Notes: generated by a model not told the origin, from the sequence alone. Counted from the stretch's first letter, positions 13,491 through 56,357 are shown. The stretch: DNA of 64,000 nucleotides from Candidatus Limnocylindrales bacterium (GCA_035559535.1 DATMBG010000029.1:1-64000); one strand, 5' to 3'. Numbers and translations are program-made.

Positions 13491-13499
13491 TCATGTTTT

Positions 13500-16584: not shown

Positions 16585-16681
16585 TAATCGGTTAATTCCT
16601 TACACTTCCTTGTCCGTTGTTTTTGAGCCATCCTCTCCGGCCATTAACCAGGGACAATGAAGGATTCAAGGGGGGTTGAAG

Positions 16682-28493: not shown

Positions 28494-29924
28494 TTAGGAC
28501 GTTGTATCTAACGGTACAAACGCATCGGCTTTTTGGTTCTGTAATCGGGTAGCATGGATTTCTACTCCTTCACCTTCCGTTATAGTCGGATCGCGAAGAA
28601 TACTCTCTCCTAAAATCCAGGTATCCCTGGCCGTATCTACAAAGGCACGAATCCCTGCTGCTTTAAAGCGAGGTAAAATACTTCCTATACGGCTCACAGG
28701 ATTCATTGCCGGCCATATCAAACGGGACGTTTGACCTACCATTTGAATCGTATCCTGGGTAGACGTGGAGGTTTGACTTTGCTTCCGGGGAATATGTGCC
28801 GGTAATATCAGCTTAAAGGAACAGGGAATTCGCTCATCCCAGGCCATACCCAGGATACCACTTGCGGGAAAGTCGAAAACACAGGCATCAAAATGGAAAT
28901 CTTCATCATAAATTCCGATGGGTTCTGGATTTGTTACGTACACCGAAAAATCGTAAGGACTCCCATCGTAGGTCCCTTCGGCTACTTTGAAATACCATTC
29001 TGATCGACCTAAAGGCATGGTAAGGGGAGGTTTTTTGTTTTGGAAAGGACCTGAGACTAGGTTTTCAAGATTGCCATCAAAGGGATCTACAGAATCAACC
29101 TGCTCCTGAACAAAATCTACGCCGTTCCATCGGCCAAAGTTAAAATTTCCTCCCTTAAAGTAAACAAGCCATTGATCCACCGATCGATTATCCAGCAGAG
29201 CTCCCTGGGATTCATCGATGACCAGGGTTTTCCCATGGGGAATGATGCCGTTAAATAAGATTCCTTCTTCTGTGGTAGGACAGAAGACACTGGGCAAAAC
29301 GGTACGATCGCCGATCCCCTGGAGAACCAGTTTTATTGGGGAAACTTCAACATTTTTATTTTCAATGGCCCACGTGTTCAAGGGCCAGCGTTCAACCGGT
29401 TCTACTTTCTTGCGGCAAAATGGATTTTCATACAGATAGATTCGTTCCCGGGGTTTTTCAGGGAGGTGGGAGAACTCAATTATCGCTTTGTGGGAGTACA
29501 ACTCTTTATCGATATGCTTAATAAGCGGATCACCTGGACGCTCAGGGATCAGGGTTGCGTTCAAGAAGATGGCCACACTCTCCATCACCGCCCCGGGTGT
29601 TCCCAGGCCTGTCAGGTGGACCCTGGCAATTCGCTGTACCCGTTCCCGCATCAAATCTAATTTTTGACTGTACTCTAGAGTTCTATCAGTCAAGATATCC
29701 TCGAAATGAAACGCGGTAAGATTCAAGGTGGCGGCAAGCCGGATGATATCCTCTGCCTGTTCAGCCACCTTTATACGATGGGCCCGCTGGATACGAAAAA
29801 GCTGGGTATCAGCTTCTTCCAAAGGTTGGGCTAACCACCGTACTACTTCATAAAGCAACTTTGTGCGATCGGTGGCTCTATAGAATGCCGGAAAAAAACT
29901 CAGAATACGATCAGACCTGGCCAT
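28494..29924 (-). CDS. baseplate wedge protein (gpI/gp7-like)
   Basis: Overlaps end of baseplate J; GLGTPGAV and terminal 'RFKAAGIRA' motif typical of gpI-like wedges. Confidence 0.6.
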   Translation of the reverse strand: MARSDRILSFFPAFYRATDRTKLLYEVVRWLAQPLEEADTQLFRIQRAHRIKVAEQAEDIIRLAATLNLTAFHFEDILTDRTLEYSQKLDLMRERVQRIARVHLTGLGTPGAVMESVAIFLNATLIPERPGDPLIKHIDKELYSHKAIIEFSHLPEKPRERIYLYENPFCRKKVEPVERWPLNTWAIENKNVEVSPIKLVLQGIGDRTVLPSVFCPTTEEGILFNGIIPHGKTLVIDESQGALLDNRSVDQWLVYFKGGNFNFGRWNGVDFVQEQVDSVDPFDGNLENLVSGPFQNKKPPLTMPLGRSEWYFKVAEGTYDGSPYDFSVYVTNPEPIGIYDEDFHFDACVFDFPASGILGMAWDERIPCSFKLILPAHIPRKQSQTSTSTQDTIQMVGQTSRLIWPAMNPVSRIGSILPRFKAAGIRAFVDTARDTWILGESILRDPTITEGEGVEIHATRLQNQKADAFVPLDTTS

Positions 29925-31761
29925 CTAATACCCCCCATATTTTTATGTTTGGTTCTCGTAATTCGGGAACCTGGTATTCTTCTAAAGAGACTTCTTCGGT
30001 GTTATTGAGCAATCGTCCGGTTTCCTCATACTCGGCATTTAATACAACGGCATTGCTGGCGATAAGCTGCAGGTGGGGTGCAACGGTTTCAAGGGCGGCG
30101 CTGATTTCCGTTTTTATATCTGTTTTCAGCAATTTGCCCCGGGCTGCTACGAGCACTCGATTGATGGCATCGGTTATAGCCGTACGAAGCGATTGAGTTA
30201 CCTCGGCCCGCTGATCCCGGCGCCTGGATTCCAGTTGTACCAACACTTCGATGAATACCGTTTCATCCATCAACCCTACAAAGACATGGTAAACCTCGGT
30301 TTTTGCTTTGCGGCCGTCGGTTGCAAGATTAGATTTATAAAACTCCTTACCGGATGCTGCACCAACCAGCAACACAGCATCCAGTACCTCCTCAGATTGG
30401 ACAATCCGACCCAGGAGCTTGTTATAGATCAGATCAGCACCCATAGGAAGGGTTTCTATGTAATCCACCACCTGCGCACGAACGGCATCCTCAATGCTTT
30501 CTTTTTGAGCCACTGAAAGGTTTCGTTCTGCTAATCTCAGGAGAACCTCAACCTGTAGGGGGAGAAGCCCTTCCGGCATTTGACGGAGGGTTTCCTGGGG
30601 TAGATGAATCGCGGCTCGGGGATCTCCTTTTTCCTTAAAATGAGCAGTTACTTCTTCTCGTGGAATGGGTTTTTGCCCGGCTTCAGCCCGTTGGGTACTT
30701 TCAGATTTCGTGCGGGTCGGTAAGTTATGCACCACGCGTACCCCGGCGGCTCTGGAGTTGAAAATGGCCTCTTCGACCCGTCTCACCAGGTCTGCATCTT
30801 CTATGGATCCTAATCCCAGCTTGACTTCTACAAAACCCGGTACTTCGGGTCGTTCTAGTATCTGGATATTACTTTCTGTAATTTCAGGTAATTCCTCAAT
30901 AAGATGATACTTAATGGCATCCAGGGTTGCTTTTCCGGCCCGTTCCAGAGTTCCTTTGATACGTCTTCGGAATTCTTCATCGGTTTCTTTAGCTGCGGCA
31001 AAAAAAGTGGCTTCTTCATTAATAACCGATTCGATTCCAAAGATCGGCCGATTGATGTTTTTAATCGTACCTGCTTCGACTCGGCCAGTTGGACCTTCTA
31101 CCTGGGCCCGGATCGGTACAATTACTGAGAGCTGGTCTTTGCGCAACGTACGCTTATCGGTGGTTTCAAAATTCAAACCCAGATCGGTGGAAACCAGAGT
31201 ACCTGCCGGAATGGTAATGTCACCCGGTGCCGGAGTACTTCGTTTAAAAAGAACTTCACCGCCGGCAAACTTGGCATCTTTACGGGTTAAACCGAGTAAG
31301 GCAGCCACATGATCCAGGGAAATACCCGTGGCCAGATCCACGAAGGGCGACCGATAAATCAACTCCATTTGTTTATGCAAAACGGCAAATTCCCGCGCAA
31401 AAGCTTCGGCCAGCGTGGTGGTCACACTACCTGGATTTCGATCCGTCAGTCTTCTTTGACCTTCTTCAAGATAGTAATTAACATAGAAAAAGCTATGATC
31501 ATCAGGTAATTTTCCATCGGACTTCCAGATGAGGGCTTCCTGGTCCTGGTTGTAAATATAATCAATACCCCTTTCAAAGAGGGCAAAGGCCTCATGGCGT
31601 TGTCCAAATACCTTGATGCTGGCCGGTATGACACCAGGAGAAGCCAGGCCGTAAGGCTCTTCGGTTCCAATGAACTGATGTTCCTCCCGCACCATACCAC
31701 CTGTAAGAGCGGTCAACAGGTCATCTACAAATTGTTCGTAGGGTTGCGCAACAAAAGTCAT
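29911..31761 (-). CDS. baseplate J-like (gp6/gp47) protein
   Basis: TDRNPGSV, ATGISLDHVAALLGLTRK, IPAGTLVST, ETDEEFRRR, RAAGVRV. Confidence 0.9.
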   Translation of the reverse strand: MTFVAQPYEQFVDDLLTALTGGMVREEHQFIGTEEPYGLASPGVIPASIKVFGQRHEAFALFERGIDYIYNQDQEALIWKSDGKLPDDHSFFYVNYYLEEGQRRLTDRNPGSVTTTLAEAFAREFAVLHKQMELIYRSPFVDLATGISLDHVAALLGLTRKDAKFAGGEVLFKRSTPAPGDITIPAGTLVSTDLGLNFETTDKRTLRKDQLSVIVPIRAQVEGPTGRVEAGTIKNINRPIFGIESVINEEATFFAAAKETDEEFRRRIKGTLERAGKATLDAIKYHLIEELPEITESNIQILERPEVPGFVEVKLGLGSIEDADLVRRVEEAIFNSRAAGVRVVHNLPTRTKSESTQRAEAGQKPIPREEVTAHFKEKGDPRAAIHLPQETLRQMPEGLLPLQVEVLLRLAERNLSVAQKESIEDAVRAQVVDYIETLPMGADLIYNKLLGRIVQSEEVLDAVLLVGAASGKEFYKSNLATDGRKAKTEVYHVFVGLMDETVFIEVLVQLESRRRDQRAEVTQSLRTAITDAINRVLVAARGKLLKTDIKTEISAALETVAPHLQLIASNAVVLNAEYEETGRLLNNTEEVSLEEYQVPELREPNIKIWGVLDGQV

Positions 31762-32246
31762 TACAGAGGTCCTTCAAATAAAAAGGGAATCACCAGACTC
31801 AAGGGATCTGGAAACCCCTTCATTTGGACGGTGATATAAATATCCACCTTATCCCGATTCTCACGCCCCTGGCTCGGTCTCACATCGATCCTTTGAATCG
31901 CTTCAAGCCTCGGCTCCTGCTTTAAGCATTCCAACACGTAAAGTTTAATCAAATTTCGGTTACCTTCTGTGTTTGGTTCCCCTATCAGCTCATGATGCCG
32001 TGAGCCGTAATTGGGATGACCTAACCCGGCCAGTTCACCCCGTTCTGTTTTGAGCCGAAGAATCAAGCTCTGGATCAGATTCGCCTTTCCGTTGACCATC
32101 CTCAGGTCCATTGTACGGGGAGCAACCTCCTCACGAAGTTTTGCCTGCAGGTCTACCCGTGAATAGGGACCGGCAAACACCCGACCTTCTTCATCGGCTA
32201 TAAAACCCAAATCGAAATCTTGACCCAAAAAAATTTCATCGGCCAT
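31761..32246 (-). CDS. gp25/GPW baseplate wedge protein
   Basis: NLIQSLILRLKTERGEL..HPNYGSR.HELIGEP, QEPR. Confidence 0.9.
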   Translation of the reverse strand: MADEIFLGQDFDLGFIADEEGRVFAGPYSRVDLQAKLREEVAPRTMDLRMVNGKANLIQSLILRLKTERGELAGLGHPNYGSRHHELIGEPNTEGNRNLIKLYVLECLKQEPRLEAIQRIDVRPSQGRENRDKVDIYITVQMKGFPDPLSLVIPFLFEGPL

Positions 32247-32470: not shown

Positions 32471-32734
32471 TTAGGTAGCTTTACTAAAATTGAGATCCAT
32501 TTTTTCGACGGTATAAGTTATAGCAGTATCAGACGGATCCTTGACGGTGATACTCTTGAGTATGTCCTCTTCGTGATCCTTCAAATACTCCAAAATCCCG
32601 CGTGCTATAGCGGCGAATAACAATCGCCGATCCTCTGAGCCGGCAGCGGGTAGCGGGGTTCCTTTAACCACCTGCCATTCATTCTTAAAGGCTGCTTCTA
32701 TAGCTTCCGTCATATGGGTAGCTTCCAGTGCCAT
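32471..32734 (-). CDS. small hypothetical between spike and gp25
   Basis: 87-aa ORF with GGAG SD, co-oriented in operon. Confidence 0.6.
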   Translation of the reverse strand: MALEATHMTEAIEAAFKNEWQVVKGTPLPAAGSEDRRLLFAAIARGILEYLKDHEEDILKSITVKDPSDTAITYTVEKMDLNFSKAT

Positions 32735-32752: not shown

Positions 32753-33565
32753 TCAACCTGTTTTAACCTGTGTAGACAACAGGGCAGGGGTTGCCGGTGG
32801 AAGAGGCGGTACGGGGGGGGCCGGCGTCACCGGAAAGACCCCCAGGGCCAGTTCTCCCGGGTGTACGTGGGTTTGATAGAGCTGTACCAGTTGATTCAGG
32901 TACTGCAATAACTGATCGCCAAATACCAGGGGATGCATAGCATTTTCCACCAACTCGATTTGAGGTGCCTCGACTACGACCTTTATCTTCCCCTGGACTT
33001 TAATCTGCCCCTGCTGTACCTTAATCTCTATCAGATTGTTACCGTTCTGATCGGTTAACAGGATATTTTGGTTGTTAGAATCCAGGATGATATCCCCGTT
33101 ATGGTTCACCGTGAGTTTGGTTTTTCCCATTTCCAGTTGGAGCTTATCGTCATCGAGTAAGATTTTGTTACCTTTGGGAAATTCCAGGTATGTTCGGCGA
33201 ATTCCTGATTCAGCCGGGTCAGGGCAAATATAAACGAACTCATGGGGTTTCGCCTCGGGAGGATGGTCTTTATCGTTGTAAATACGCCCCGTGATAACGG
33301 CTGTATGAATATCCCCGTATAAAAACTGAACTAAGACCAGATCCTCCTTGTTGGGAATGGCAACAGCCCCTATTCTTTGAGTACTGACCGGTACCCGTTT
33401 CAGTTCCAGACCGGAATCCCGCAATCGAACGTCGCATTGATAGTTATTTTTATCCGAAGCACTTTCATGGGAATAAACCCGGGTCACGATCCCCCATTCT
33501 GCCGTTTTGAAACCTCGTAATTGGTCACGAACAATAGCCTGTATTAAACTGATCAAATCGCTCAT
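32753..33565 (-). CDS. central spike (gpV/gp5 OB-fold plus beta-helix, HxH apex)
   Basis: GIVTRV, IP...DLVLVQF..GD....VITGRIYN, beta-strand repeats, terminal THVHPG. Confidence 0.85.
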   Translation of the reverse strand: MSDLISLIQAIVRDQLRGFKTAEWGIVTRVYSHESASDKNNYQCDVRLRDSGLELKRVPVSTQRIGAVAIPNKEDLVLVQFLYGDIHTAVITGRIYNDKDHPPEAKPHEFVYICPDPAESGIRRTYLEFPKGNKILLDDDKLQLEMGKTKLTVNHNGDIILDSNNQNILLTDQNGNNLIEIKVQQGQIKVQGKIKVVVEAPQIELVENAMHPLVFGDQLLQYLNQLVQLYQTHVHPGELALGVFPVTPAPPVPPLPPATPALLSTQVKTG

Positions 33566-34719
33566 TATAATCCTAAAGCTCCTGCCAGCTTTCCGGCTAA
33601 CTGGTTCAGAAGATTGCCGGCCTTTTCGGCCCCACCCTGTCCTGTAAAGCCGATGAAAGTCAGGTAACCCTGTTGTTTATTGAAAACGTGACCTACAGAA
33701 ATAACCTTGAAAAGTCCGTTCAATTCTGGCTTCTGGGCATTTTTGATTTCGATGGCATCGGCTAACTTCACCTTGGGGTTTCCGAGAATTTTCATCTGTC
33801 CCCAGGTAGAATAATCTTTAATAGCACCGAACTTAGAAGTAGCCAGACGATCTGCTGCATCTTTTGTTCTGATGGTTCCGTCTTGAAGGCTCAATGTCCT
33901 TTTGCCCTGACCGACTTCACTTTGAAAAGGCGATAAATCCTTTGCAATCCAATGCCAGGTATCTGCTCCTTGCTGACTGGCCGGACTCTCTCCATAGACC
34001 AGAATAGGATCACCGGCCACCGGGTAATGGGAGATCCGGAGGTCGAGGATATCAATACCGAAGTAGAACGTGTGATCGGGGTTCGACTTGTTAAACTTTT
34101 TCAGGGTCAGTTTATTATCTGTATCAAAGTAGGCATCCAGTCCATCGCGCATGGCCAGTTCGCAAATATGTTTCAGAAGGTTCTTCGATTCGTGAGCTAT
34201 GAAGTAGGGATAAGAGCTACCCGTTTCGATTTCACCGGTTTCTACTTCAGCCTGGCGGGAGAGGTTTTCAACGATCTGGCGCAGGGTTTGATTTTCATAG
34301 ACCTGGTTGATACGGGTACTGGCCAATTTCTGTTTACCGGTTGTACCCACGATTTTTGTTTGACCAAAAGACGATTCAATGGATTGCACATCGGCCGTCA
34401 TGACTTTACCGGAGCGGTCACCGGCGGTTAACTCGACGGTGAGCCGATCACCCTGTTTGATTGCTTTGCCACGTACCTGTATAGAGAAGGATTCTTCCTT
34501 CTCCTCATTGCCAAAGCCGAGAGCGCTGGCGGCTGCGCTTACTGCCTGTTCTAATAAACCAGGTTGTGGCGCTGGCGGTGCATAGATTGAGATGCGACAG
34601 GTATCAGCAGGTAAATTCGTCGAATGGTTGAGTTCCAGCGTAATGAATTCGGTACGCAGATCGTCCTGTGAATTTACCATCCAATCCCCGATAGAAAGTT
34701 TGTAATGAACTTTATACAT
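33565..34719 (-). CDS. baseplate hub (gpD/gp27-like)
   Basis: YENQTL.QIV..L, ELAMRDGLDAYFD, GNP.VKL.DAI, GLFKV.SV.H.F...GYLT. Confidence 0.85.
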   Translation of the reverse strand: MYKVHYKLSIGDWMVNSQDDLRTEFITLELNHSTNLPADTCRISIYAPPAPQPGLLEQAVSAAASALGFGNEEKEESFSIQVRGKAIKQGDRLTVELTAGDRSGKVMTADVQSIESSFGQTKIVGTTGKQKLASTRINQVYENQTLRQIVENLSRQAEVETGEIETGSSYPYFIAHESKNLLKHICELAMRDGLDAYFDTDNKLTLKKFNKSNPDHTFYFGIDILDLRISHYPVAGDPILVYGESPASQQGADTWHWIAKDLSPFQSEVGQGKRTLSLQDGTIRTKDAADRLATSKFGAIKDYSTWGQMKILGNPKVKLADAIEIKNAQKPELNGLFKVISVGHVFNKQQGYLTFIGFTGQGGAEKAGNLLNQLAGKLAGALGL

Positions 34720-34766: not shown

Positions 34767-37700
34767 TCATGGTGGCAGAGGAGGCACCGGTGGCAGCACA
34801 CCGGGCTTCTGCACGTCCCAGAACTGGATGTACTTCCCCAGTTCCGGTGCAAGGGCCTCCGTCTGGCCTCCCACGTTTGTCACCAGGAGTCGTATGTTGT
34901 TCTTCTCCAGGATAGCGGCAATTTCCTTCTGCGCTTCGATGGGCATCGGTTGGCCGGGTGGAACGCGGGCCAGAACTTTCTCGATATCGTTAGCGGCGCG
35001 CTCCATCCGATCAGCCGCCTCGATGAAATCCGGGGGTACATCGGCGAATCGTTTGGCGAGTAACCGGAATTCACGAACATCTTCACGCAGGTTGGTGACG
35101 AGGTTTCGTGTCAGAGCGGAGACATCCTTGAGCAGTTTCCGAACAAACGATTTATTATCCAGGATCCCAAGCATCTTATCGGACCGTCGCAACGCGATGA
35201 GATCGATACCTTTACGGGTTACAAAGCGGTCCGGTGCCTTCAGCAGGTCAAACTCCGGCCCTAATTGAAAGGCCAGGTCCATCTCACCGGACAGACCGCG
35301 AAATTCCCCCATACGGCGGCTGACATATCTCTCGAACGGTGATTTCACCGGGGGACGACCCCTGGGGCGGAACTTCATGTCGACCCAAAGCCTGTATAGC
35401 ATATTCTCGCCACCATTGACGAGCCGATCCTTCAGGAACAGGCTATCCTGGATGGTTTTTGCGAGATCTTCCAGCTCCTTGCGGCGAGCTGCACTATCCT
35501 GGATCCAGGCCTTCAATTCCTCCAGCTCGTTCTTCAATGCCCTGACACGATCGGCTGCTCGTGCTTTCTCCTCCGGTGTGGAGAAGCGGCTGCGGGCACG
35601 CTTGCTGTACTCCTTGATACGCTGCTCAATCTCACGGCGGCGAATCCGTGCGGCGTCCTGATACTTCTTCAGGCCGCTCATGCGTTTGGCAATATCATCG
35701 GGAGCTATACGCTCCGCGGCCTGCGTTGCACGCAATTTGAACTCGTCATTAAGGGCATCCAAGGCCTTCTCTACATTTTTCAACTCCGCCTCGGTCGCAC
35801 CCTCGTTTGCCAATCGTTCCAGAAACCGTGCTTTACGCTTGGCGTAGGCATCCTCGGCCAGCTCAGTAACCACACTGCGGAAGGTCCCACGCTCGGCTTT
35901 CACCGCAGCATCTACGGCTTCACGCATCGGTGTGTCGAATTTCTGTTGATAGAAGGCAACATCCCGATTGAACAGGTCATAGACCTGTTCATTCACCCCG
36001 GGCGGAGGGTCTGGAGGAGCTTTCGTGGTAGGTGGTGGTGAAGGGGGAATTTCGCCCCCGGAGGGCGGGGCCTTCCGGGGTGGCTCTGCGGGCGGCTTGA
36101 TCTGGGGTTTGGGGGTCTTTGGCCCCTCCGCGAGGCGCTTGAGTACAGTGGCTTCACCGTTCTCTACGTCGCGGATCACAGCCTCTATGGCTTTTGCCTC
36201 GTACTTTAATTCACGCCCCAGGTCGTCCAGGGCGGCTAACATGGTATCCACCTTTGCCACGTCACCACCTGCATGGCGATAGATCGCACCGAACGCCTTT
36301 TCATTTTTAACAATGGCCTTTGTCCATTCAGGACGGGATGCCAGTTGCTTGAAGAACTCAGATGTGGTGTAGGCTTTTGCGCCGGTCAGGGCCTCTTCTG
36401 ACAGTGCCTTCACAGCCTCTGCGAACCGTGTTCCTTCACCCTCGGGGAGTGCTTCCATGACGGTCAGCAACTCTCGCTCGGAAAGACGTGCTGAGGAGCG
36501 CAACCGGGCAAAAGCCTTCTCGATTGCTTCGGTGGCCGCACCTCCACCCTTGCGGATCAAAACGGCCATCGCCTCAACCTCCTGTCGTGCTCTGACCAAT
36601 GTTTTCGCTGCGCCTGCGTCTTTTGCCAGTAGTTGCTCGAACGTCTGTGCCCCTTCGGCCTCAGCCTTAGTCAGTGCAGACTCTGTGGCCCGCAGATCCT
36701 CTACAGGCAGGTGGGATAGGGCACGAGCAGCCTCTTCTTCGGCAGCGATCAAGCGGCTCTCCCGGCTAAGGACACGACTAAAGACGCGGAAAAACTCCAC
36801 CCCTCGTTCGGTCAGGGTCAACTTTTCGGCAAGAACTGCAATCGAAGCCGCTTCGATGCCAATACGTGCCAGATTGAAAGCCGCTTTAATCTCTCCAACA
36901 CCGATGAATAGAGAAAGAACCTCCCAAAGGATGGTCCACTTCACACGCCGTAGTACGTCTTCGGTGACACCGAGCTCCTTTGCAGCCCGGTAACCATCCC
37001 GGAATCCTTCACGCAACCCCTCAAACAACCCCTTGAGCGTTTGCCGTGCCTTATCCCGCTCGGCACGGGCCCGCGTCAGCCAGGCCGGTTCGCCCTCCTT
37101 CTTGTCCGGTAGAGGGATACGGGCCAGATCGATGGTAATCGCCAGCTTCATGAGCTGTCCGACCGCGTCGATGAGTTGCTGTGGGTTCGTGATGAGATGG
37201 AACAGGTCCTTGATGGCATTGGGGACAAATCGAACCAGACTGAGCGCGCCCTGTCTCAGATCCTCCAGATAGTCAGGGGTAAAGAGCAGGCCCGTTGGCC
37301 CCCAACTAAGCCGTGAAACCGCACCCAGGATCTTCTTTGGCTCCTTCGAATCTGTCCCGAGGGTGCCGAGTTGTAGGATTTCCAGGAAGAATTCCAGGTT
37401 GAACTCCTGGGGTGGCAGCTCCTTGGCTAACTTCTTTCCCAGCATGGTCAGCAAACTCCAGAGGTTGGAATCCAGGTTGCGAACCAGCTTGGCCATCTTC
37501 TCCTTGCCCAACTTGTCCCGAATTCTGTCCAGTTCCACCTTACTTTCCACGGCCTTCAGAATCTCGAAGATGGCCTTATCCAGTTTTTCGTCACCCAGAA
37601 TGCCAAAGCGCTCGATCAGGAACTCCAGATACTTGAACCGCTTCTCTGCACCCACGAGATCAAAGGCATTGTGGTCCAGAGCGAGCAGGAGAGCTTCCGT

Positions 37701-39296
37701 ACGGTCTTCATCGGTTACCAAGGCAGTATCAATGGGTGGGAAGACCGTTGCCACGATTCGGTCTTTGAGCTGCGGATCCATGGGTAGCGCGCCGGATGGA
37801 TCCATTCCTTCCTCGCGGAGCTGCCGGAATAGCTCGGTTTCCACAAATCCTACCCTGGGCCAGAAGAACAGATCATCAGCCGTACCGATAATCCGCAAGA
37901 TGCCTGCCAGGTCCGTCTTCTTATCGGTCAGAAGTAATTGCCAGTACCGCACTCTGACCTCTTTGAATTGAAAGGTTCCCGTCGCATCAACGGCCGGCTG
38001 CCCTTCTAACTCAGCACTAGAAAACGGCTTCTTCTGTGCTCCGGGTAAAGGTGGAGTCACGTAATACTGCCAGGTTGGAATCACATAATACCGTGGCGGG
38101 CCATGTTTGAATCGCTGCCCCGACGAGTAAAGGGGGCTTTCGATAACCGCGAATGATTGCGGGCCGAAAAGTGCCTTACCCCATTGAATGGCCCGCGTCA
38201 ATTGGTAGGCGATAACATATCTGCTTCCCTCTGGATCTCCTGCGATCCAGCTCCAGTCAGGTAGAATTATCAGCGTCTGATCGCTAAGGCCGCTGGCTCC
38301 GGAAATCACCTGATCCTGATTCGGTTCATCCTCCCAATGAATGAATGGCCAACCGGTACCATAAAGATCCGCCTCCTCCGGTGGAGTTTCCAAATCACTT
38401 AGTTCCTCCCCGGCGATGATCTCAAGGGGAGGAAAGACCAGTCCCGAATCATCCGCCGGGGGAGCTACTCCAATTCCAGGCGATGGAATGACCGGTACCG
38501 GTGGTGTAGAGGAGATATCCTGAGTGCCGGTCTCGGAGATAAGGTCCAATATGCCGGAACCGCGCACGATCTGCGCCGCTACTTCCCTGAACAGCGGTTC
38601 ATCGACTGCGTTCTCTTTGGGCGGTGGCAGGGCATCGTCTTCTTCTACCGTATCGCCCCTGACAGCCTCCACCTGCTCACCAGTCATATCGGGCAGACCG
38701 GGGGGGGCCGCGTAGGCGGCTTGCTTTTCCCGGACGTTCAGTACCGGCTGGCTCTGATCTTCGAAAGTGTTGCCCATATTCACGATAAAGTAGAATTCAG
38801 AATCGCCGGCTACGTCATCGAGATACGCAGCTTTCCACCAGGTAACGAGGTAATACAGATCGGTTTCAAGGGGATCGTTGAGAATCAATAAGTAATCAGC
38901 ATAATCTGTTGGGTTCTGTTCGACAAAGCGTGTAACGGCATCCTCCAGGGTGTCTGTTGGGCCCAGTATCCATGTCCGGTTGATACGGTGTTCGATCTGA
39001 GGAAACGGTTCAGCAGAAGGAGAAGCGCCTGAGCCGAGAATTGAGACCACCCGATCATCCGAGCCACCGGTCAGGAGGAAATCCTCCTCCAGGATATCGA
39101 AACGAATTGGCGTGTTTGCATCCGGTAATAGCTCGCTATCCTGTACCATCACAACCAGCTCTACCGTCTCCATGGAGTCCAGCCTACGGTCCCCGACAGG
39201 GGTCAAACCCTGGGCCCAGAAGGCCTTCACTCCTTCGGTCTGCGGACCTGCGTAGCTACAGAGATGACATTGATATAGTTTGCCTCTTAATGCCAT
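34767..39296 (-). CDS. large putative polymorphic toxin/cargo with C-terminal PD-(D/E)xK (REase-fold) nuclease
   Basis: About 1509 aa from ATG 39296 (GAGG SD); hydrophobic WEVLSLFIGVGEIKA, Pro-rich linker, coiled coil, G..GE...GIDLIA...LDNKS. Confidence 0.6.
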   Translation of the reverse strand: MALRGKLYQCHLCSYAGPQTEGVKAFWAQGLTPVGDRRLDSMETVELVVMVQDSELLPDANTPIRFDILEEDFLLTGGSDDRVVSILGSGASPSAEPFPQIEHRINRTWILGPTDTLEDAVTRFVEQNPTDYADYLLILNDPLETDLYYLVTWWKAAYLDDVAGDSEFYFIVNMGNTFEDQSQPVLNVREKQAAYAAPPGLPDMTGEQVEAVRGDTVEEDDALPPPKENAVDEPLFREVAAQIVRGSGILDLISETGTQDISSTPPVPVIPSPGIGVAPPADDSGLVFPPLEIIAGEELSDLETPPEEADLYGTGWPFIHWEDEPNQDQVISGASGLSDQTLIILPDWSWIAGDPEGSRYVIAYQLTRAIQWGKALFGPQSFAVIESPLYSSGQRFKHGPPRYYVIPTWQYYVTPPLPGAQKKPFSSAELEGQPAVDATGTFQFKEVRVRYWQLLLTDKKTDLAGILRIIGTADDLFFWPRVGFVETELFRQLREEGMDPSGALPMDPQLKDRIVATVFPPIDTALVTDEDRTEALLLALDHNAFDLVGAEKRFKYLEFLIERFGILGDEKLDKAIFEILKAVESKVELDRIRDKLGKEKMAKLVRNLDSNLWSLLTMLGKKLAKELPPQEFNLEFFLEILQLGTLGTDSKEPKKILGAVSRLSWGPTGLLFTPDYLEDLRQGALSLVRFVPNAIKDLFHLITNPQQLIDAVGQLMKLAITIDLARIPLPDKKEGEPAWLTRARAERDKARQTLKGLFEGLREGFRDGYRAAKELGVTEDVLRRVKWTILWEVLSLFIGVGEIKAAFNLARIGIEAASIAVLAEKLTLTERGVEFFRVFSRVLSRESRLIAAEEEAARALSHLPVEDLRATESALTKAEAEGAQTFEQLLAKDAGAAKTLVRARQEVEAMAVLIRKGGGAATEAIEKAFARLRSSARLSERELLTVMEALPEGEGTRFAEAVKALSEEALTGAKAYTTSEFFKQLASRPEWTKAIVKNEKAFGAIYRHAGGDVAKVDTMLAALDDLGRELKYEAKAIEAVIRDVENGEATVLKRLAEGPKTPKPQIKPPAEPPRKAPPSGGEIPPSPPPTTKAPPDPPPGVNEQVYDLFNRDVAFYQQKFDTPMREAVDAAVKAERGTFRSVVTELAEDAYAKRKARFLERLANEGATEAELKNVEKALDALNDEFKLRATQAAERIAPDDIAKRMSGLKKYQDAARIRRREIEQRIKEYSKRARSRFSTPEEKARAADRVRALKNELEELKAWIQDSAARRKELEDLAKTIQDSLFLKDRLVNGGENMLYRLWVDMKFRPRGRPPVKSPFERYVSRRMGEFRGLSGEMDLAFQLGPEFDLLKAPDRFVTRKGIDLIALRRSDKMLGILDNKSFVRKLLKDVSALTRNLVTNLREDVREFRLLAKRFADVPPDFIEAADRMERAANDIEKVLARVPPGQPMPIEAQKEIAAILEKNNIRLLVTNVGGQTEALAPELGKYIQFWDVQKPGVLPPVPPLPP

Positions 39297-39306
39297 TTCT
39301 CGATCC

Positions 39307-42300
39307 TCACACCGGAATAGCCGCAATCATTCCATTAAATGCCGTTTCAGTCCGTTTCAGCCCTGTCGCCAACTCACCACGTAGCTGATTTAGCCGATCT
39401 GTCAACGGCTGAAGGATAACCCCTATGTCAACGGCTTCCAACACTTTCTGAATGCTCTCAAACGTGGCCTGAAGCGGCTCCTTGAAGGTAGACGGATCAA
39501 ATTCGGCAACAATTTCTTTCGATAACTTGAAGGGTTCGTTTAACTCACTTAACAGTTGAGAAGGCTGTAAGGCAGCCACCAACCCCTTTACCTCGTCTAC
39601 CAGATTTTGTAGTTGGACGATAATCGGTCCCGGGTCCAGGCCGACGATGATCGTTTTCACTTCGTCTGCAGCACCGCTCAGCTCATTAAGGATTAACTGT
39701 AAATCAAGGCCGTCCAGTCGTTGGAATAACCCGTTGAGTACCTCTTGCACCTGATGGGTAAGCGCCTGGGGGTCAAGCGAAAAGAGGGCTGTTTTCAACC
39801 GCTCAAAAGAGACTTTAATCTGCTCCTGCAAAATACGCGGATCAAAGTTCCGTAACTGCTGCTTGATAGCATCGTAGAGTTGATGGATCTCGGTAGTCAG
39901 GTTTAAGGGATTGGCTAATCGAAACACACGTCGGATGGAATCGGGAGAGACGTTCTCTTTAGCCCATATCGGAATCAGCGATTCCAGTTTTTCTCTTATC
40001 TCGGTGTTGTATCGGTTGATCAGATCCATCGACGGCTCAAGATGTGCCAGCGTGTTGATTTGTACCTGGGCGTGTTGCAGATCGTTCACGGCCTGCGTGA
40101 TGGCAGCATTGCGCAACGGATTTAAGTCTTCTACAGAGGCAGACAATGAAACGTGTACCGGGCCACCATGGGCTTCAAAGGAAGCATGCATCGAATCGTA
40201 GGGTCCTTTAAGCGATGCGAGCAGTCCCCCCACGTTCAGTTGTTGGAGTAGACCGTTCACCGTGGTGGCCTTTTCTCTCACGACCTGAAAAACTCGCTTT
40301 GGATCAAAGGCATCCACGGCGCTGCGCAGAACGGCAAAGATCTCTGAGATTAATCCCACGTGATCCGATGTGAGATTGGCCAGAGGTGCGGCCAGCACAT
40401 TGAAGATATCTGTGAGCGGTTTTAGCAGGATAGCCGGATCAAAGTTATCCAGTGCAGCCATGATTTTGTCGAATGCTCCCACCAAGGGGTTGAGCAGGCG
40501 ATCCGGAGAAATCTTATCCAGTGCTCCTTTCACCTGATTAATTACCTCGCTCAATTTAGCTGAGAGCCCGGTGACGTCAATTTTTCGAACCTGGGCCTTG
40601 ATATCGTCTATCGCTTCTCGCAGTGGGCGAATCAGTTCTACAGGTGAGATCTTATCCCATGCACCAGCCAGTTGGGCGTGTAGATCGATCAAAGGTTTAA
40701 GGAGCATGGCGGGTGAGACCCTGTCCAGTTCTTGTTGAGCACGCGTGTACCATTCATCCAGCGGTTTGAGCAACACTTCCAATTTGAGCGTATCCAGATG
40801 AGAAATAATCGGGGCAAACAGGTTGTCCAGCGGCTTAAGTAGCACCTCCGGTGCAAGCTGACCAAAACGTTGGAGGACACTCTCCACGCTGGTCTCGATT
40901 TCACCCAGGGCTTTTTTTGGAATCTCCAGCAACTTGTCGAACTCTGCCATCAGCGCATCGGTGATTTGAACTGAAAAGTCAATCTTTACCATCACTTCCA
41001 CCGAGACCTTCAGGGCACCGATGGTAAATTCGTTCAATGATGAAACATCAATCTTCTTCAGCGTATCGCGCATCTCGTTGATCTGGGCGACAACAGGATC
41101 AACAATCGGATCGAAATCAATACTTCCCAGCGAACTCAGCATCCCTTCCAACTTCTGGCGTACCGCTTCGACCGTACCCGCCACGTCCAGGCTCTGAAGC
41201 TGATCATTGATGCCTTGCAGCATTCCTTGAAGTTGTGTTTTGACCTTCTCAATCTCACCTTTGACGGCATTTAGACCATCACGCACCTGCTGTAATGCCT
41301 GCCCGACGGTGTTTTTGAATTGATCAACTAAAGGCCGGATCGTCTCCTGCAGGGTTTGTTTTACACCGTTAAGGAAGTCTTCGATCTGTTGCTGAATGTG
41401 AAAGCGAAAGTTACCCTGTTCGTCGTAGCTTCCAAGCGTTGAAGCCATGGATCTCAGGGTATCCTTGATTTGCGTAAAGACAGCACGGATCGAGGCAATG
41501 GCTTCGAACAGTGCCCCGTCGAGCGCATCTAAAACAGATTGAAGCTGTTTTTGCAGGTCGGTCAGCTTCCCTGTCCATTGACTCAGATCGAATTTTCCAA
41601 TCACTCCGTTGATTTGATCGAAAATCCCTTCGATCTTCTGTCGGATGAGATCCAGATCGAGTCCGCGGATTGCTTCTTCAATGTGCCCAATGGCTTGGGT
41701 AAATTTATCGCGGATGTTGCCCAGGTCAATGATCTCGATCTGCAGGAAGTTCTCGAATTGTTGTTGCAGGGCATGTGAAAGCCCATCGGCAGTGGCAATA
41801 GGTTGATCGAGGAAACGGCGCAGGGTCATAGTAATGGAAGCCAGGGCATCGACCAGTTGTTGAAAGCTGGCCCGCACAGAAGCAAAATGAGTCGTATTGG
41901 TGAAGTTGCCTTGCTCGAACTCGGTACGGACCCGGTCCATGGCGTTGATCAGATCGGCTTTAAGGGTGTTAATTGTCGATAGCTTTTCGGTCGAGATCGC
42001 CGCATCGAGATTACCCGAAATGACCAGGGCCAGGTTCTCGCCCGGCAAGATCAGCCGCACCAAATCGGTAACTTTCTCACGTAGATAGGCCAACAAACGA
42101 TTTTCGAGTGTGCCGGGGTCACCCCGGAGGAGCGGTTGAATCTCCTCATATAACCTTTGAACGTTCTCGCTCCATTGCCTGATCTGGCCGAATTCGCCGG
42201 AGATAAACTCACCTTTGATCTGTGTCATTCGATCGGCTGCTTCGGTGATCAATTCCCGCGCACTGGGTGGAATAAGTGACGCAATATTTTGGAGCCCCTG

Positions 42301-42648
42301 GAGACCGGTCAGCAGTTGTCCAGAAAGATTGTCTGCGGAAAGGTTTCTGAGGCTTTCCAGCCTGGCATTAAGGGGTTGAATTAAGGAAGGTGGATCCGGA
42401 AAGGCGTTCACCGCCTGCCGGAATTGGGCTGATGCTCCTCCGGTCACTGCGTCGGTGTTGACCGAAACCCGGGCAGAAAAATTCTGATCCAGTTTTATTG
42501 CCAGAGACGCCGACAAATGGGATGGATTGATCTTCTCTAAAAGTTTCAACACCCCGGCGACTCCTGTTCCTGCGGCTTCATCTCCCAGCACGGGAGCCAG
42601 AATATTTGTTAATTGTTCTTGCGTGGGTAGCTGTTGTAAAAGTCCCAT
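39307..42648 (-). CDS. approximately 1113-aa amphipathic helical repeat protein (tape-measure-like)
   Basis: 23-residue periodic L..(L/I/F)(D/S)P..L..PL repeats; ATG 42648 avoids overlap with upstream gene. Confidence 0.65.
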   Translation of the reverse strand: MGLLQQLPTQEQLTNILAPVLGDEAAGTGVAGVLKLLEKINPSHLSASLAIKLDQNFSARVSVNTDAVTGGASAQFRQAVNAFPDPPSLIQPLNARLESLRNLSADNLSGQLLTGLQGLQNIASLIPPSARELITEAADRMTQIKGEFISGEFGQIRQWSENVQRLYEEIQPLLRGDPGTLENRLLAYLREKVTDLVRLILPGENLALVISGNLDAAISTEKLSTINTLKADLINAMDRVRTEFEQGNFTNTTHFASVRASFQQLVDALASITMTLRRFLDQPIATADGLSHALQQQFENFLQIEIIDLGNIRDKFTQAIGHIEEAIRGLDLDLIRQKIEGIFDQINGVIGKFDLSQWTGKLTDLQKQLQSVLDALDGALFEAIASIRAVFTQIKDTLRSMASTLGSYDEQGNFRFHIQQQIEDFLNGVKQTLQETIRPLVDQFKNTVGQALQQVRDGLNAVKGEIEKVKTQLQGMLQGINDQLQSLDVAGTVEAVRQKLEGMLSSLGSIDFDPIVDPVVAQINEMRDTLKKIDVSSLNEFTIGALKVSVEVMVKIDFSVQITDALMAEFDKLLEIPKKALGEIETSVESVLQRFGQLAPEVLLKPLDNLFAPIISHLDTLKLEVLLKPLDEWYTRAQQELDRVSPAMLLKPLIDLHAQLAGAWDKISPVELIRPLREAIDDIKAQVRKIDVTGLSAKLSEVINQVKGALDKISPDRLLNPLVGAFDKIMAALDNFDPAILLKPLTDIFNVLAAPLANLTSDHVGLISEIFAVLRSAVDAFDPKRVFQVVREKATTVNGLLQQLNVGGLLASLKGPYDSMHASFEAHGGPVHVSLSASVEDLNPLRNAAITQAVNDLQHAQVQINTLAHLEPSMDLINRYNTEIREKLESLIPIWAKENVSPDSIRRVFRLANPLNLTTEIHQLYDAIKQQLRNFDPRILQEQIKVSFERLKTALFSLDPQALTHQVQEVLNGLFQRLDGLDLQLILNELSGAADEVKTIIVGLDPGPIIVQLQNLVDEVKGLVAALQPSQLLSELNEPFKLSKEIVAEFDPSTFKEPLQATFESIQKVLEAVDIGVILQPLTDRLNQLRGELATGLKRTETAFNGMIAAIPV

Positions 42649-42664
42649 AAAGCTTTTCCCGATT

Positions 42665-43246
42665 CTATGGGCCAAACAAATTACGTAGATCGGTGACAAC
42701 GGTATCCAGGCCCGTAGTAGCCGCTTTTATCCCATCCAATGCCTGACGTAAAGGCTGGGTGGGATCTCCAAAGTTAGGGATGGAGGACAAAGTATCTATG
42801 GCATTCATGGCCGTATCTACTAAATTCATGGCATCCTCCAAAATTCCGGTGTCCAGCAAATTTGTTGCAGGAGGCTCCGGCGGCTTAACATATTTTCGTA
42901 ATTTGATCAGATACCGGAAGCTATCCGGGCTCCCTGAAACCTCCACAACCTCCAGATCTTCGATGATCACCTCGGTGATATCGGTTGCGGTGTTGATATC
43001 GGCCACGAAGGTTGTTGGTTCACCTTTATTGAAAATCTCTCGAATTCCATTCAAAAAAGTATCCCGAGCCTCATCCCCGTGTCTGGTACCGACGATCACA
43101 ATGGCGTTGGGTACGGTTCCCATATCCTGGAAATAATTCCCCGCCAGACCCGGAACCCGATGCTCCACCAGCGCCCGGCTTTCCGAGGATTCGATGTACT
43201 CAATACCCTCCAGGGCAAAAGATCCCAGCATAGGTTTGATTTTCAT
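42665..43246 (-). CDS. Mu gpN-like 'DNA circularization N-terminal' / tube-initiator protein
   Basis: LVEHRVPGLAGNYFQDMG, terminal Y.I.L.KY. Confidence 0.65.
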   Translation of the reverse strand: MKIKPMLGSFALEGIEYIESSESRALVEHRVPGLAGNYFQDMGTVPNAIVIVGTRHGDEARDTFLNGIREIFNKGEPTTFVADINTATDITEVIIEDLEVVEVSGSPDSFRYLIKLRKYVKPPEPPATNLLDTGILEDAMNLVDTAMNAIDTLSSIPNFGDPTQPLRQALDGIKAATTGLDTVVTDLRNLFGP

Positions 43247-44770: not shown

Positions 44771-45274
44771 TTATGTGGGAACTTCAGTATCCTGGATACT
44801 GATGCGTTTGGCTTTGAAAGATAGTTTTTCAAGGACAAAGTCATCTTCCGGTAAGCTAAATTGCCAGGTATCGAACATGACGCCGTAAACCGTTAGAATA
44901 CTATTTCCTGCATCTCCTGGGGGCATTAAATTGTCGAGGATAATTTTCATATTGAAACTGGGGATCCTAAAACCGGTAGTTTCTTCATTTTCAGCATATG
45001 GGCCCAACATTAATTTTAGAAGCGCGCCGTTAATAAAAGCCCGCTCGACCGTTCCCTCGATGATAATATTGCCTGCCCTTAACTCCTTGGGAGCCCGAGA
45101 ACCCAGTTCGTGAAAAAATTTAACTTCCGTTGAAATTTGGATGGATACGTTGGTCACCCGACCTACAAGCCCGTCTTCACCCAGGTAACCGGTAAAGACA
45201 CCCGTATCCAGGCCATCTGGATCACTCAACGTCAAAACCCCATCGGTACCATAAAAAGCATGGGTATTAAACAT
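44771..45274 (-). CDS. tail tube protein
   Basis: 167 aa directly after sheath; ELG...KEL..G.I.IEGTVER, EDDFVLEKLSFKA. Confidence 0.75.
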   Translation of the reverse strand: MFNTHAFYGTDGVLTLSDPDGLDTGVFTGYLGEDGLVGRVTNVSIQISTEVKFFHELGSRAPKELRAGNIIIEGTVERAFINGALLKLMLGPYAENEETTGFRIPSFNMKIILDNLMPPGDAGNSILTVYGVMFDTWQFSLPEDDFVLEKLSFKAKRISIQDTEVPT

Positions 45275-45284: not shown

Positions 45285-46973
45285 TCAGCTTAAGTTCATG
45301 ATAACGCGGATCACGTCAATACTGAAGGTAGGATTGAGATCCATAACCACCAGCACTTCTCCTCGAATCTCCATGGCGCGATCTGCCGAGACGGTAAGTT
45401 TGTATCCGGTCAGAAATTCCCGGAGGATCAAATCCGATAGAAAGCTATCAAGGGTGGTGCGCAGGTTTTCCCTCACCCGCCTGTTGTTTAACTTGCCAAT
45501 ATATTGGTTTGCACCCAGGCGGGTACCTTCTTTAACGTAGTCCACGATCCGACGCAGGGTAATTTGTTTAAATGCTTCGTCATCGGTGGTAATCCCTTTA
45601 ACGACCCGGATACCCCGCTTTTTCTGTAGGGTAAGCACACGGTTTTGTACCAGCGCCTTCAGCTCACCGTAATTGTACTCCATGGCCAGATCCTCAATAC
45701 CGGCCAGGGTCTTATTGGTCAGGCTGATGTGGGGAGATAAAGAACTCAGCTTACCGGCTACAGCCGCTGCGGCAAAATAGGGGGGCAAATCTACTACCTG
45801 GCCGGTTTGAGGATCTTTTTCTCTAAGACCCGGTGCTACCAAAACAATCCGCTTATCGGCAATTTCGTTGGCATTCTCCAGGATCTTTTCCATTTCACTG
45901 CTATCGGTTCCAACCACGGCCATACGTTCACGACCCAGATTTTCCGTCTTTTCCACATGACCCAAAATGGCTGCTTTGATATCTGAGAATTTGAGTCCTG
46001 CGACCACCACGATTTGTACATTTTGCTCGACCAGGTTATCCAGAGCAGCCTGGAAATGACTTAAGGATACCGTTCCGTTCTCCCCCCCTGAAAAGGCCTC
46101 AAATCTTGGGGTTGTCTTGGGCAGGCCATCTCCTTTTGTTTCGACGACCTCTACCAATCTGGAAGGATTCTCTTCATCCTTAAGCCGTTGAGCCAGGTAA
46201 GAAATGCTGGGAACGATATAAACTTCCTGAGTATTGCCATATCGTAAGGTAACTTTTCGCAGGCTTTCTTTAGGTACCCAGTAGCTGGCCAGTACCTCTG
46301 CCGTTGAGGAGGGCGGGATCGCAAACGTCAGCGTACGATTGGTTGGATTCACCTGAACTACACTGGTAGAAGCCTGGGTTTGCTTAAGCTGATATTTTTT
46401 CGCTAATCCCTGCTCCAGGACTACTACACTGCCTATACTCGATTCTGCACCGTTACCACCTTCCGCGGCCTGCGGTTGAAGAATTTTCTGGGCTGAAAGC
46501 ACAAAAGATCCGTTACTGCGGGCAACCACTTCCTTACTGACGAGTTCCTGGACTTCAGCCTCCTCAATCCGAATCTGTAGTCGATTCCCCCAGGTACCCG
46601 GGGTCCTGGCTTTTAAGGTCAGAACCGGAGCATTACTTTCATTGGATATCTGATAGGTTGCTCCCCTGGCTGTTTTTTCGTCCAACACCCGTTGCGCATA
46701 AACGGTACGGGCTCCATTATCAAAGAGAAATTTGAGGGCTCGAACTAGGGTGAGATTACTTTCCCCTCCTTTCAGGTCCCATTCCTCTATTTCCCCAAAC
46801 CTGGCCCGCCCTTCCTCAAAACTACTCAGGTTTTCGATCTTACTACTTCCCATCTCAGCCGTTCCGATAATACCCACGTTTCCCGTAGCAATAGCTCCAA
46901 TGGTCAGAAGCCCTTCAGCCCGGACCTCGATGTAAGTACCGGGAAGGATAGTTTCCGTAATAACTTCGGCCAT
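45285..46973 (-). CDS. contractile tail sheath protein
   Basis: ILPGTYIE, GIIGTA, GARTVYA.RV, ARTPGTWGN.L, FSGG.NG, RRIVDYV, IGKLNN, P..SIDVI. Confidence 0.92.
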   Translation of the reverse strand: MAEVITETILPGTYIEVRAEGLLTIGAIATGNVGIIGTAEMGSSKIENLSSFEEGRARFGEIEEWDLKGGESNLTLVRALKFLFDNGARTVYAQRVLDEKTARGATYQISNESNAPVLTLKARTPGTWGNRLQIRIEEAEVQELVSKEVVARSNGSFVLSAQKILQPQAAEGGNGAESSIGSVVVLEQGLAKKYQLKQTQASTSVVQVNPTNRTLTFAIPPSSTAEVLASYWVPKESLRKVTLRYGNTQEVYIVPSISYLAQRLKDEENPSRLVEVVETKGDGLPKTTPRFEAFSGGENGTVSLSHFQAALDNLVEQNVQIVVVAGLKFSDIKAAILGHVEKTENLGRERMAVVGTDSSEMEKILENANEIADKRIVLVAPGLREKDPQTGQVVDLPPYFAAAAVAGKLSSLSPHISLTNKTLAGIEDLAMEYNYGELKALVQNRVLTLQKKRGIRVVKGITTDDEAFKQITLRRIVDYVKEGTRLGANQYIGKLNNRRVRENLRTTLDSFLSDLILREFLTGYKLTVSADRAMEIRGEVLVVMDLNPTFSIDVIRVIMNLS

Positions 46974-47596: not shown

Positions 47597-47923
47597 TTAG
47601 GGTTCTAATTCCTTTTTCCCCTGGGTTTTGTCGGTCAGTTCACGTAAAAATACCTTTATTTCTTTCAACCGATTTTTATTCAGTCCGTAGATTTTTGGAG
47701 AAGGGAGGATTTCTCGTTTTATCAACCATCCCTTTGAGACCAAAAAATCAAGGACTTCTTGAACGGCTTTTCCATCTATTTTAGCCTGACTTTTTGGAGT
47801 CCACCACTTGAGAATCCCTTCCAGGGTATCTTTTGCGTCAGGGTGTTCGGTTAAGTAATGGAGAATTTCTTCAATCAATTTCTGACGAGCCCTGAAAGAT
47901 TCTTTTTCCTTTGGAGAATTCAT
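47597..47923 (-). CDS. small winged-helix protein, first gene of CIS operon
   Basis: EILHYL..HPDAKDTLEGI.KWW, VQEVLDFLV.KGWL, IYGLN. Confidence 0.65.
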   Translation of the reverse strand: MNSPKEKESFRARQKLIEEILHYLTEHPDAKDTLEGILKWWTPKSQAKIDGKAVQEVLDFLVSKGWLIKREILPSPKIYGLNKNRLKEIKVFLRELTDKTQGKKELEP

Positions 47924-56262: not shown

Positions 56263-56357
56263 CAACCTGGCTTATGAAAGTAACTCCTCACTTGAGCCAG
56301 CTGGAGGCTCCTCTACGTTATTTTGAAACGTTTTTAAAATAACTCTTGAAGTTAGCT

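Follow-up and report, generated by a model that had tools for sequence, protein, structure and literature searches.

A giant gene in an injection-system cluster of a Candidatus Limnocylindrales bacterium encodes a candidate payload with a PD-(D/E)xK-like nuclease domain

The long gene and its C-terminal domain

A stretch of 64,000 nucleotides from a Candidatus Limnocylindrales bacterium (GCA_035559535.1, DATMBG010000029.1:1-64000; hereafter the window) carries a phage-tail-like gene cluster from ~22.5 to 47.9 kb, with every gene on the minus strand. Its largest open reading frame (ORF), at 34767..39296, has the same orientation as its neighbours and is tightly packed between a tape-measure gene and a baseplate hub gene. 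A reading made from the sequence alone had placed a gene of about 1500 aa among structural genes here, and that is what is found. Taking sequence and structural model together, we lean towards regarding the product, P0001, as a payload of a contractile injection system (CIS) with a C-terminal metal-dependent nuclease.

On the minus strand, 34767..39326 is a single ORF with a TTG start and 1519 codons for amino acids; started at the ATG at 39296, 10 nt past the stop of the 1130-aa gene at 39307..42699, it encodes the 1509 aa of P0001 and ends in TGA (34767-34769). The hub gene starts with the ATG at 34719, preceded by a GGAG ribosome-binding site, and the 47-nt gap between the two genes leaves no space for an immunity ORF. 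Gene order is identical in L001, a metagenome-assembled genome of the same genus, and the gap after the long gene is equally short there; the absence of an adjacent immunity gene, claimed earlier for the window, thus holds in both genomes. Between P0001 and its 92%-identical orthologue in L001, the ratio of nonsynonymous to synonymous substitution rates (dN/dS) is 0.118 for the whole gene and 0.098 for its C-terminal domain. P0001 is a real gene under purifying selection along its full length. The GC content at third codon positions is 0.61 in this gene, compared with 0.42-0.55 for the other cluster genes (0.55 in the tape-measure gene and 0.42-0.51 in most of the rest), and the GC maximum of the window (0.568) falls in 36-38 kb. 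Third-position GC above that of the neighbouring genes suggests an accessory gene acquired from elsewhere. The genome contains one copy of its C-terminal domain.

The regions of P0001, from N- to C-terminus and followed by the predicted active site, are these:

38727..39296, minus strand: residues 1-190, immunoglobulin-like (Ig-like) beta-sandwich, possibly a docking module (AlphaFold2, VIA)
38367..38726, minus strand: residues 191-310, acidic Pro-rich linker (15% Pro, 21% Asp plus Glu; 30% identity to P0003-5)
37857..38366, minus strand: residues 311-480, second N-terminal region without family match (31% identity to distant homologues)
36117..37856, minus strand: residues 481-1060, long Ala/Leu-rich region, presumed helical (composition, blastp)
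36807..36956, minus strand: residues 781-830, invariant hydrophobic motif W-T-x-L-W-E-V-L..G-V-G-E-x-K (alignment of homologues)
35997..36116, minus strand: residues 1061-1100, Pro-rich linker (45% Pro)
35430..35996, minus strand: residues 1101-1289, highly charged region, presumed helical (19% Asp plus Glu, 22% Lys plus Arg)
34770..35429, minus strand: residues 1290-1509, PD-(D/E)xK-like nuclease domain with a short Pro-rich tail (AlphaFold2, VIA, 145 relatives)
35151..35285, minus strand: predicted active site, E1338, D1365 and D1380-N-K1382 (conservation in relatives, AlphaFold2 placement)

The last ~220 residues were modelled by AlphaFold2 from an alignment of 36 of the shorter relatives (A2), with a mean predicted local distance difference test score (pLDDT) of 91.6 and a predicted template modelling score of 0.83. 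The model consists of two short helices, a long helix, three strands, three helices and two more strands (in model numbering, helix 42-66, strands 70-74, 87-91 and 97-102, helices, and strand 189-194). The order of the core elements, alpha-beta-beta-beta-alpha-beta, gives the domain as modelled the classical PD-(D/E)xK layout with a helical insert. A VIA search of 48,161 representative chains returned PD-(D/E)xK nucleases in 17 of the 18 top rows, among them AF1548 and the small subunit of R.BspD6I (both Z 6.4), FokI (6.3), NucS (6.2) and SdaI (5.8); XisH, Can2, McrC, HamA, BstEII and Card1 also matched, and the CdiA-CT toxin 4g6u was found at Z 4.4. The weak top rows of a Foldseek search were BstEII, HamA, NucS/EndoMS, FokI, Exo5 and XisH. 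When these Foldseek candidates were examined again with VIA, all 18 top rows were nucleases of PD-(D/E)xK fold, headed by FokI (Z 6.8, root-mean-square deviation 3.2 Å over 119 residues), and the best values for HamA and NucS/EndoMS were both 6.4. The FokI cleavage domain, NucS/EndoMS and HamA share with the window domain the core fold and the placement of the acidic and Lys residues, at 9-16% identity and Z 6 to 7. The window domain additionally has two helices at its N-terminus and, between strands 3 and 4, an insert of three helices.

In the model, E1338 lies in the long helix, D1365 at the start of strand 2 and D1380-N-K1382 in strand 3 (E59, D86, D101 and K103 in model numbering), so that E, D and DxK would occupy the canonical positions of the PD-(D/E)xK superfamily. 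To count conservation, 151 domain hits in 146 proteins were placed in a profile alignment, with the covered rows as denominators. E1338, G1363 and D1365 are each conserved in 140/140 rows, D1380 in 143/144, K1382 in 144/144 and N1381 in 128/144; the spacing from E to D is 27 residues in 109/140 rows, and that from D to D 15 residues in 102/140. Taken alone, the pattern G.D..[DE].K does not exceed chance, as the loose regular expression also matches residue 1010 of P0001, and the significance of the motif therefore comes from its conservation. Invariance of four catalytic-type residues in about 140 relatives with differing N-termini points to selection for catalysis. The same invariance, together with the low dN/dS of the domain, makes it most improbable that the C-terminal domain is a catalytically dead relic in a protein with some other role, a view for which one might cite the moderate structural Z-scores. 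In the Caballeronia protein P0005 an insertion of ~100 residues, which resembles a duplication of the neighbouring helices, lies within the helical insert of the nuclease domain (columns ~1570-1650 of alignment A1).

The restriction-endonuclease-like fold that had been proposed for the C-terminus from its motifs is thus borne out by the confident model, the structural matches and the placed E, D and DxK residues. The motifs themselves are all present where they had been quoted (CxxC at residue 10, WTILWEV at 787, GIDLIA at 1363 and LDNK at 1379). Assignment to the Tox-REase toxin families found no such support. In Pfam, which includes Tox-REase models, the domain has no Tox-REase match at E <= 10, and 0/146 relatives have one at E <= 0.001. 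The pattern E..GxD..(D/E)xK is a general signature of the PD-(D/E)xK superfamily and is not peculiar to Tox-REase toxins. No family matched the domain in Pfam (even at E <= 10), NCBIfam, PHROGs or PADLOC; PDB sequences searched by phmmer and with the A2 profile gave nothing beyond low-complexity noise, and BFVD gave no match at E <= 0.001. The ESM Atlas returned clusters without names for the domain, Mrr_cat at rank 4 (score 0.90) being no more than a lead, and no result for the N-terminus of P0001.

Relatives of the domain and of the whole protein

When 1.84 billion representatives were searched exhaustively by HMMER with residues 1280-1509, 145 proteins were recovered at E <= 0.001, 102 of them at <= 1e-10, and the domain ends at most 40 residues from the C-terminus in 138 of 146 proteins. 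When 142 relatives were scanned with Pfam, 17 were found to carry an N-terminal eCIS_core (DUF4157) domain, at lengths of 565-1297 aa. A P0001-like N-terminal domain is present in five, four share the middle region alone, 12 are other long proteins, 65 are proteins of 400-799 aa without a Pfam domain, and the remaining 39 are shorter, many being fragments. The C-terminal domain is therefore a recurrent C-terminal module of proteins with the CIS-effector marker eCIS_core/DUF4157. Weak Poly_export-like matches were seen in P0012, P0013 and P0044, and a sub-threshold PT-TG match in P0059. In P0153 (708 aa) a Gly/Pro linker separates the nuclease-like domain from an Ntox4 domain, an arrangement of two putative tandem warheads.

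Nearly all relatives are metagenomic proteins; the named sources are Caballeronia sp. LZ029, from which P0005 comes, and the Olavius algarvensis Delta 1 endosymbiont, the source of P0134/P0156. The phylum of the window is represented by nine species genomes in the collection, and the domain occurs in two of them, both of the same genus. A scan of genome contigs for relatives found the same-genus L001 alone, and two metagenome scans and one viral scan found no locus with the domain. A degenerate DNA pattern picked out seven loci in viral contigs, none of which (0/7) encodes the domain, and plasmids and phages gave no match to it.

Two families of proven toxins invite comparison with the domain. 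PoNe is an experimentally proven PD-(D/E)xK DNase domain found at the C-termini of effectors of type V, VI and VII secretion systems, with the motif Kx3GExnGIDx2YxnYx3ExK, and a PoNi gene follows it in 90% of cases (PMC6688995). The window domain family shares with PoNe the elements [RK]x3GE, G[TI]D and DNK, and differs in that the two Tyr of PoNe are absent, the first position being A/V/G/S/T and the second I/V/L. No PoNi (DUF1911) ORF lies downstream of P0001, and PF08929 was unmatched in the genome, although it was silent in control genomes too. BaCT, likewise a proven C-terminal PD-(D/E)xK DNase, is fused to DUF4157 among other N-terminal domains; in the description of the family all but 4 of 97 members are from Bacteroidetes, the motif is ExK, and most have an adjacent BaCTic immunity gene (PMC7073777). 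From BaCT so described the window domain differs in its DNK motif, and no immunity ORF follows P0001.

These comparisons also bear on the substrate. The PD-(D/E)xK fold has RNA-cutting members, Can2 and Card1 are among the structural matches, and for the three helices inserted between strands 3 and 4 there is no counterpart with a known function; a payload whose C-terminal domain acts on RNA or on another phosphodiester substrate could be imagined on these grounds. We consider it distinctly improbable, because most of the top structural matches are DNA endonucleases and both PoNe and BaCT, the known toxin families of this fold, are DNases.

Word-index protein searches identified four full-length homologues of P0001, with 92, 49, 45 and 42% identity. 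All four retain the same C-terminal domain, contrary to the domain swapping that had been expected among homologues; the relatives were retrieved via the C-terminal domain or the whole protein, which limits what they can say about swapping. A search with the N-terminus for carriers with other C-termini, which covered proteins of 2716-5000 aa alone, found none. Against the three distant homologues the best-kept segments are residues 781-830 (67% identity) and the C-terminal domain (62%), and the linkers are lowest at ~30%. The motif at 781-830 is also the densest run of invariant columns outside the C-terminus. Parts of the middle region are shared more widely, as blastp aligned residues 325-1067 with P0046 and 27-811 with P0134, and N-termini ~42% identical to that of P0001 occur in P0013, P0032, P0044 and P0059.

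The N-terminal 200 residues were modelled with a pLDDT of 71.3, residues 1-19 falling below 50. The best VIA matches of the N-terminal domain are generic Ig-like folds (Z 6.6 to 5.9), and its neighbours include, at Z 6.2 and 5.9 and hence not above other Ig-like folds, the N-terminal domain of BtaeB (BtaeB-NTD), a type VI secretion system effector from Bacteroides; the matched structure is that of a cargo complex mounted on a VgrG spike. The CxxC that had been read at the N-terminus is present and is not conserved: it is lost in 2/4 homologues and lies in the stretch of pLDDT below 50. A metal site at this CxxC (residue 10) was considered and rejected, as one Cys is lost in P0003 and the stretch is absent in P0005.

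Further along the protein, the acidic Pro-rich spacer and the Pro-rich linker of the sequence-only reading correspond well to residues 191-310 and 1061-1100. Its coiled coil fared less well: a crude heptad count in residues 1101-1289 is weak and patchy (7/189 windows), and this part is better described as highly charged. The octapeptide PPVPPLPP occurs at the extreme C-terminus of P0001 (34770-34800) and near the C-terminus of the spike (32753-32840), in both cases on the minus strand; it may serve both proteins for docking or simply reflect low complexity. Short Pro-rich tails are likewise found at the ends of several distant nuclease-domain relatives.

The surrounding injection-system cluster

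P0001 immediately precedes the baseplate genes (hub, spike, gp25-like and Baseplate_J). Several of the assignments below come from profile matches under curated cut-offs.

45285-46973, minus strand: sheath (Phage_sheath_1C, 9.9e-12)
44771-45274, minus strand: tube (Phage_tube_2, 4.6e-5)
next in gene order after the tube, minus strand: 163-aa protein with a weak tail-chaperone match, then a 330-aa protein
42665..43246, minus strand: 193-aa probable tube initiator (weak matches: DUF6046, E 0.014; DNA_circ_N, E 0.26)
39307..42699, minus strand: 1130-aa tape-measure protein, upstream of P0001 (PHROG tape-measure families, best 3.1e-13)
33565..34719, minus strand: baseplate hub, gp27/gpD-like, downstream of P0001 (E217_GP41, 8.2e-6; VgrG_rel, 1.8e-11; both below curated cut-offs)
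32753..33565, minus strand: spike, gp5/gpV-like (Phage_base_V, 0.0018; VgrG_rel, 3.6e-7)
31761-32246, minus strand: gp25-like wedge protein (GPW_gp25, 1.8e-7)
29911-31761, minus strand: Baseplate_J wedge protein (Baseplate_J, 2.1e-19)
beyond Baseplate_J, minus strand: several unknown proteins, a weakly CIS13-like protein and a fibre-like protein with CarboxypepD_reg domains

The sheath is 24-35% identical to phage sheaths over part of its length, which indicates distant kinship. The cluster is flanked by a hybrid histidine kinase, Calvin-cycle genes, a sigma-54 activator and metabolic genes. Since no capsid, portal or terminase was found among the annotated flanking genes of the window, the cluster is a stand-alone CIS or tailocin. 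Two genes of the same orientation lie directly upstream of it, encoding a sigma-54 enhancer-binding protein (48190-49584, minus strand) and a 108-aa ORF (47597-47923, minus strand). A simple -24/-12 sigma-54 promoter pattern had no site upstream of the cluster, and its one match, inside an ORF, is at chance level.

Between the spike and the gp25-like gene lies an acidic 87-aa protein without family (32471-32734, minus strand), in a place that a PAAR tip or a small BH1a-like filler of the baseplate might be expected to occupy. The DNA_circ_N match of the 193-aa ORF is to the N-terminus of the Mu DNA circularisation/tube initiator protein; if this ORF is the tube initiator, it is placed before the tape measure, unlike that of Mu, which occupies the slot between tape measure and hub.

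This slot raises an alternative for P0001 itself. In phage Mu it is held by gp43 (the N protein), a tube initiator with a tube-like beta-barrel and a LysM-bearing helical domain that enters the host with the ejected material (PMC11915804). P0001 might accordingly have a part in the structure or assembly of the tail, for instance as a second ruler, as a plug of the lumen or as a scaffold for the baseplate. Its nuclease-like domain would then only bind nucleic acid or protein, and its long presumed helical stretches and Pro-rich linkers, which recall a tape measure, as well as the similar constraint over its whole length, would suit such a part. We judge this improbable. The cluster already has a separate tape measure and, by weak matches, a probable tube initiator; the N-terminal domain is Ig-like rather than tube-like, and the four catalytic-type residues are kept in relatives whose N-termini are quite different. 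P0001 shares the gene slot of gp43 and differs from it in its Ig-like N-terminus and in having no DNA_circ_N match. The narrower idea that the N-terminal domain is the tube initiator in the gp43 slot was rejected, as the domain is a generic Ig-like sandwich with no tube protein in the top 50 rows, and also because a weak candidate exists upstream of the tape measure. A direct hhalign comparison of P0001 with the tape measure of the window gave a probability of 0.03.

A payload role and its alternatives

According to Geller 2021, DUF4157 is a hallmark of CIS toxins and stands N-terminal to the toxin domain, separated from it by linkers that can exceed 1000 residues. Danov 2024 lists 983 of 1130 DUF4157 toxin candidates without a second annotated domain. 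The effector most similar to P0001 in build is Tme (BN159_7576) of the Streptomyces davawensis CIS, a protein of 2247 aa whose ORF, the largest in the cluster, directly precedes the baseplate genes (PMC11126660). As described in that report, Tme starts with DUF4157, has predicted membrane helices, coiled coils, long stretches that are helical or disordered, and remote tape-measure homology, ends in an EndA-like endonuclease (DRGH/His-Me finger), and co-purifies with the spike and the tube initiator. P0001 resembles Tme in being the product of the largest ORF, in its gene position upstream of the baseplate genes, in its general build and in its predicted C-terminal endonuclease domain. It differs from Tme in having neither DUF4157 nor detected tape-measure homology, in the separate tape measure beside it, and in the nuclease superfamily, which is PD-(D/E)xK in P0001 and EndA-like in Tme.

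Another comparison is offered by the Sle1-type effectors of actinobacterial CIS, described as helix-rich, tape-measure-related cargo with a hydrophobic hairpin, a variable C-terminal domain and, in some cases, an immunity gene (PMC13277306). The Sle1 gene lies upstream of that for the sheath, next to the gene of its small DUF4157 partner Sle2, and the Sle1-type C-terminus reported there as tested and toxic (RS14790) is deaminase-like and not a nuclease of PD-(D/E)xK fold (PMC13277306). By analogy, the 65 relatives of 400-799 aa without a Pfam domain may be Sle1-type proteins.

As far as computation goes, the idea of an effector put forward from the sequence alone is upheld by the eCIS_core fusions in relatives, the fold and the gene position. 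Computation has shown the existence and position of the gene, the fold, the conservation of the predicted active site and the link between the domain and eCIS_core proteins; from these we infer how loading, ejection, substrate, target and producer protection might work. P0001 would be made together with the tail genes and held at or in the baseplate-tube core, probably via its N-terminal Ig-like domain, with its linkers and presumed helical parts sitting in the tube beside the tape measure. Sheath contraction would expel it, and the hydrophobic motif at 781-830, possibly a membrane-insertion element, may aid membrane entry or crossing. In the target, the PD-(D/E)xK domain would cut nucleic acid, most likely DNA, by means of E1338, D1365, D1380, K1382 and a divalent metal. 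An immunity neighbour could be unnecessary if the nuclease stays sequestered or incompletely folded up to its ejection, or if the producers are sacrificed.

The last of these possibilities leads to a further reading, in which the nuclease acts on the population of the producer as Tme does, the particles staying with the cells and the nuclease serving DNA release, programmed death or differentiation in place of an assault on foreign cells. The text of PMC11126660 makes no mention of immunity and reports that Tme brings about the release of extracellular DNA and sporulation in its producer. For the system studied here, the lack of an adjacent immunity gene in the window genome and in L001 would fit such a role; so would the cluster, in which profile scans recognised no lysis genes, and the adjoining sigma-54 activator, which suggests conditional induction. 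Yet most validated CIS toxins lack identifiable immunity genes, and many toxins of extracellular CIS likewise have none (Geller 2021); no sequence feature shows the destination of the particle, and the fibre-like CarboxypepD_reg proteins of the cluster would suit binding to a target surface. We therefore regard action on the own population as unlikely, though it deserves more weight than a structural role.

Several points weigh against P0001 being a nuclease payload. Foldseek found no match for the C-terminal model in the PDB at E <= 0.001, and all structural Z-scores are below 8, the 'middling' range by the scale of the tool itself; because they are moderate, the case for the fold rests jointly on the consistent matches, the confident model, the canonical residue placement and the conservation. 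Pfam detects no eCIS_core/DUF4157 in P0001, and PF13699 is absent from the genome, so that P0001, with its gene in mid-operon, falls outside the eCIS-associated toxins as delimited by Geller 2021. No tape-measure homology was found in PHROGs for P0001, nor for 30 relatives; DUF4157 and detectable homology of this kind are among the features by which tme-like genes are defined, and P0001 has neither. The most hydrophobic 19-residue window, starting at residue 789, reaches 1.53 on the Kyte-Doolittle scale, below the cut-off of 1.6 for a membrane span. In P0052/P0153 the Ntox4 toxin domain is C-terminal to the nuclease-like domain, which is consequently not always the terminal warhead. Gene context is known for two genomes, those of the window and of the same-genus L001.

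What is new here, without any claim that it is unpublished, appears to be a defined nuclease family that has no library match and is tied by sequence to CIS effectors. New as well is a Tme-like carrier without DUF4157 in an unrelated small phylum. The locus is a second example of the Tme arrangement, in which a giant nuclease-tipped protein is encoded just upstream of the baseplate, and it bears on the loading of payloads and on why many CIS toxins lack immunity genes. A nuclease family with a clear active site would put a name to part of the unannotated DUF4157 toxins and would provide a testable warhead, and such carriers are of interest for engineered protein delivery.

A more far-reaching proposal can be made only tentatively. 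The domain may found an undescribed PD-(D/E)xK family that serves as a recurrent, exchangeable warhead of CIS effectors across phyla; here it would be mounted on a giant carrier without DUF4157 that has an Ig-like docking domain and an invariant hydrophobic translocation motif, travels in the tail next to a separate tape measure, and is packaged inactive so that immunity is unneeded. If this is true, Tme-like effectors would be a polymorphic class in which nuclease heads can be swapped and two or more different loading modules occur.

Some other features of the window lie outside the cluster. Immediately downstream of it, a 1506-aa hybrid sensor kinase (17481-22001, minus strand) has three near-repeats of a long N-terminal module. 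The Calvin-cycle set at 9790-17332 comprises the large and small subunits of RuBisCO, a CbbX-like AAA protein, phosphoribulokinase and transaldolase, and also includes a LysR-type regulator with an extra LuxR-type helix-turn-helix. At 55653-56954 a Uma2-family putative restriction endonuclease adjoins a protein with a DisA-type diadenylate cyclase domain.

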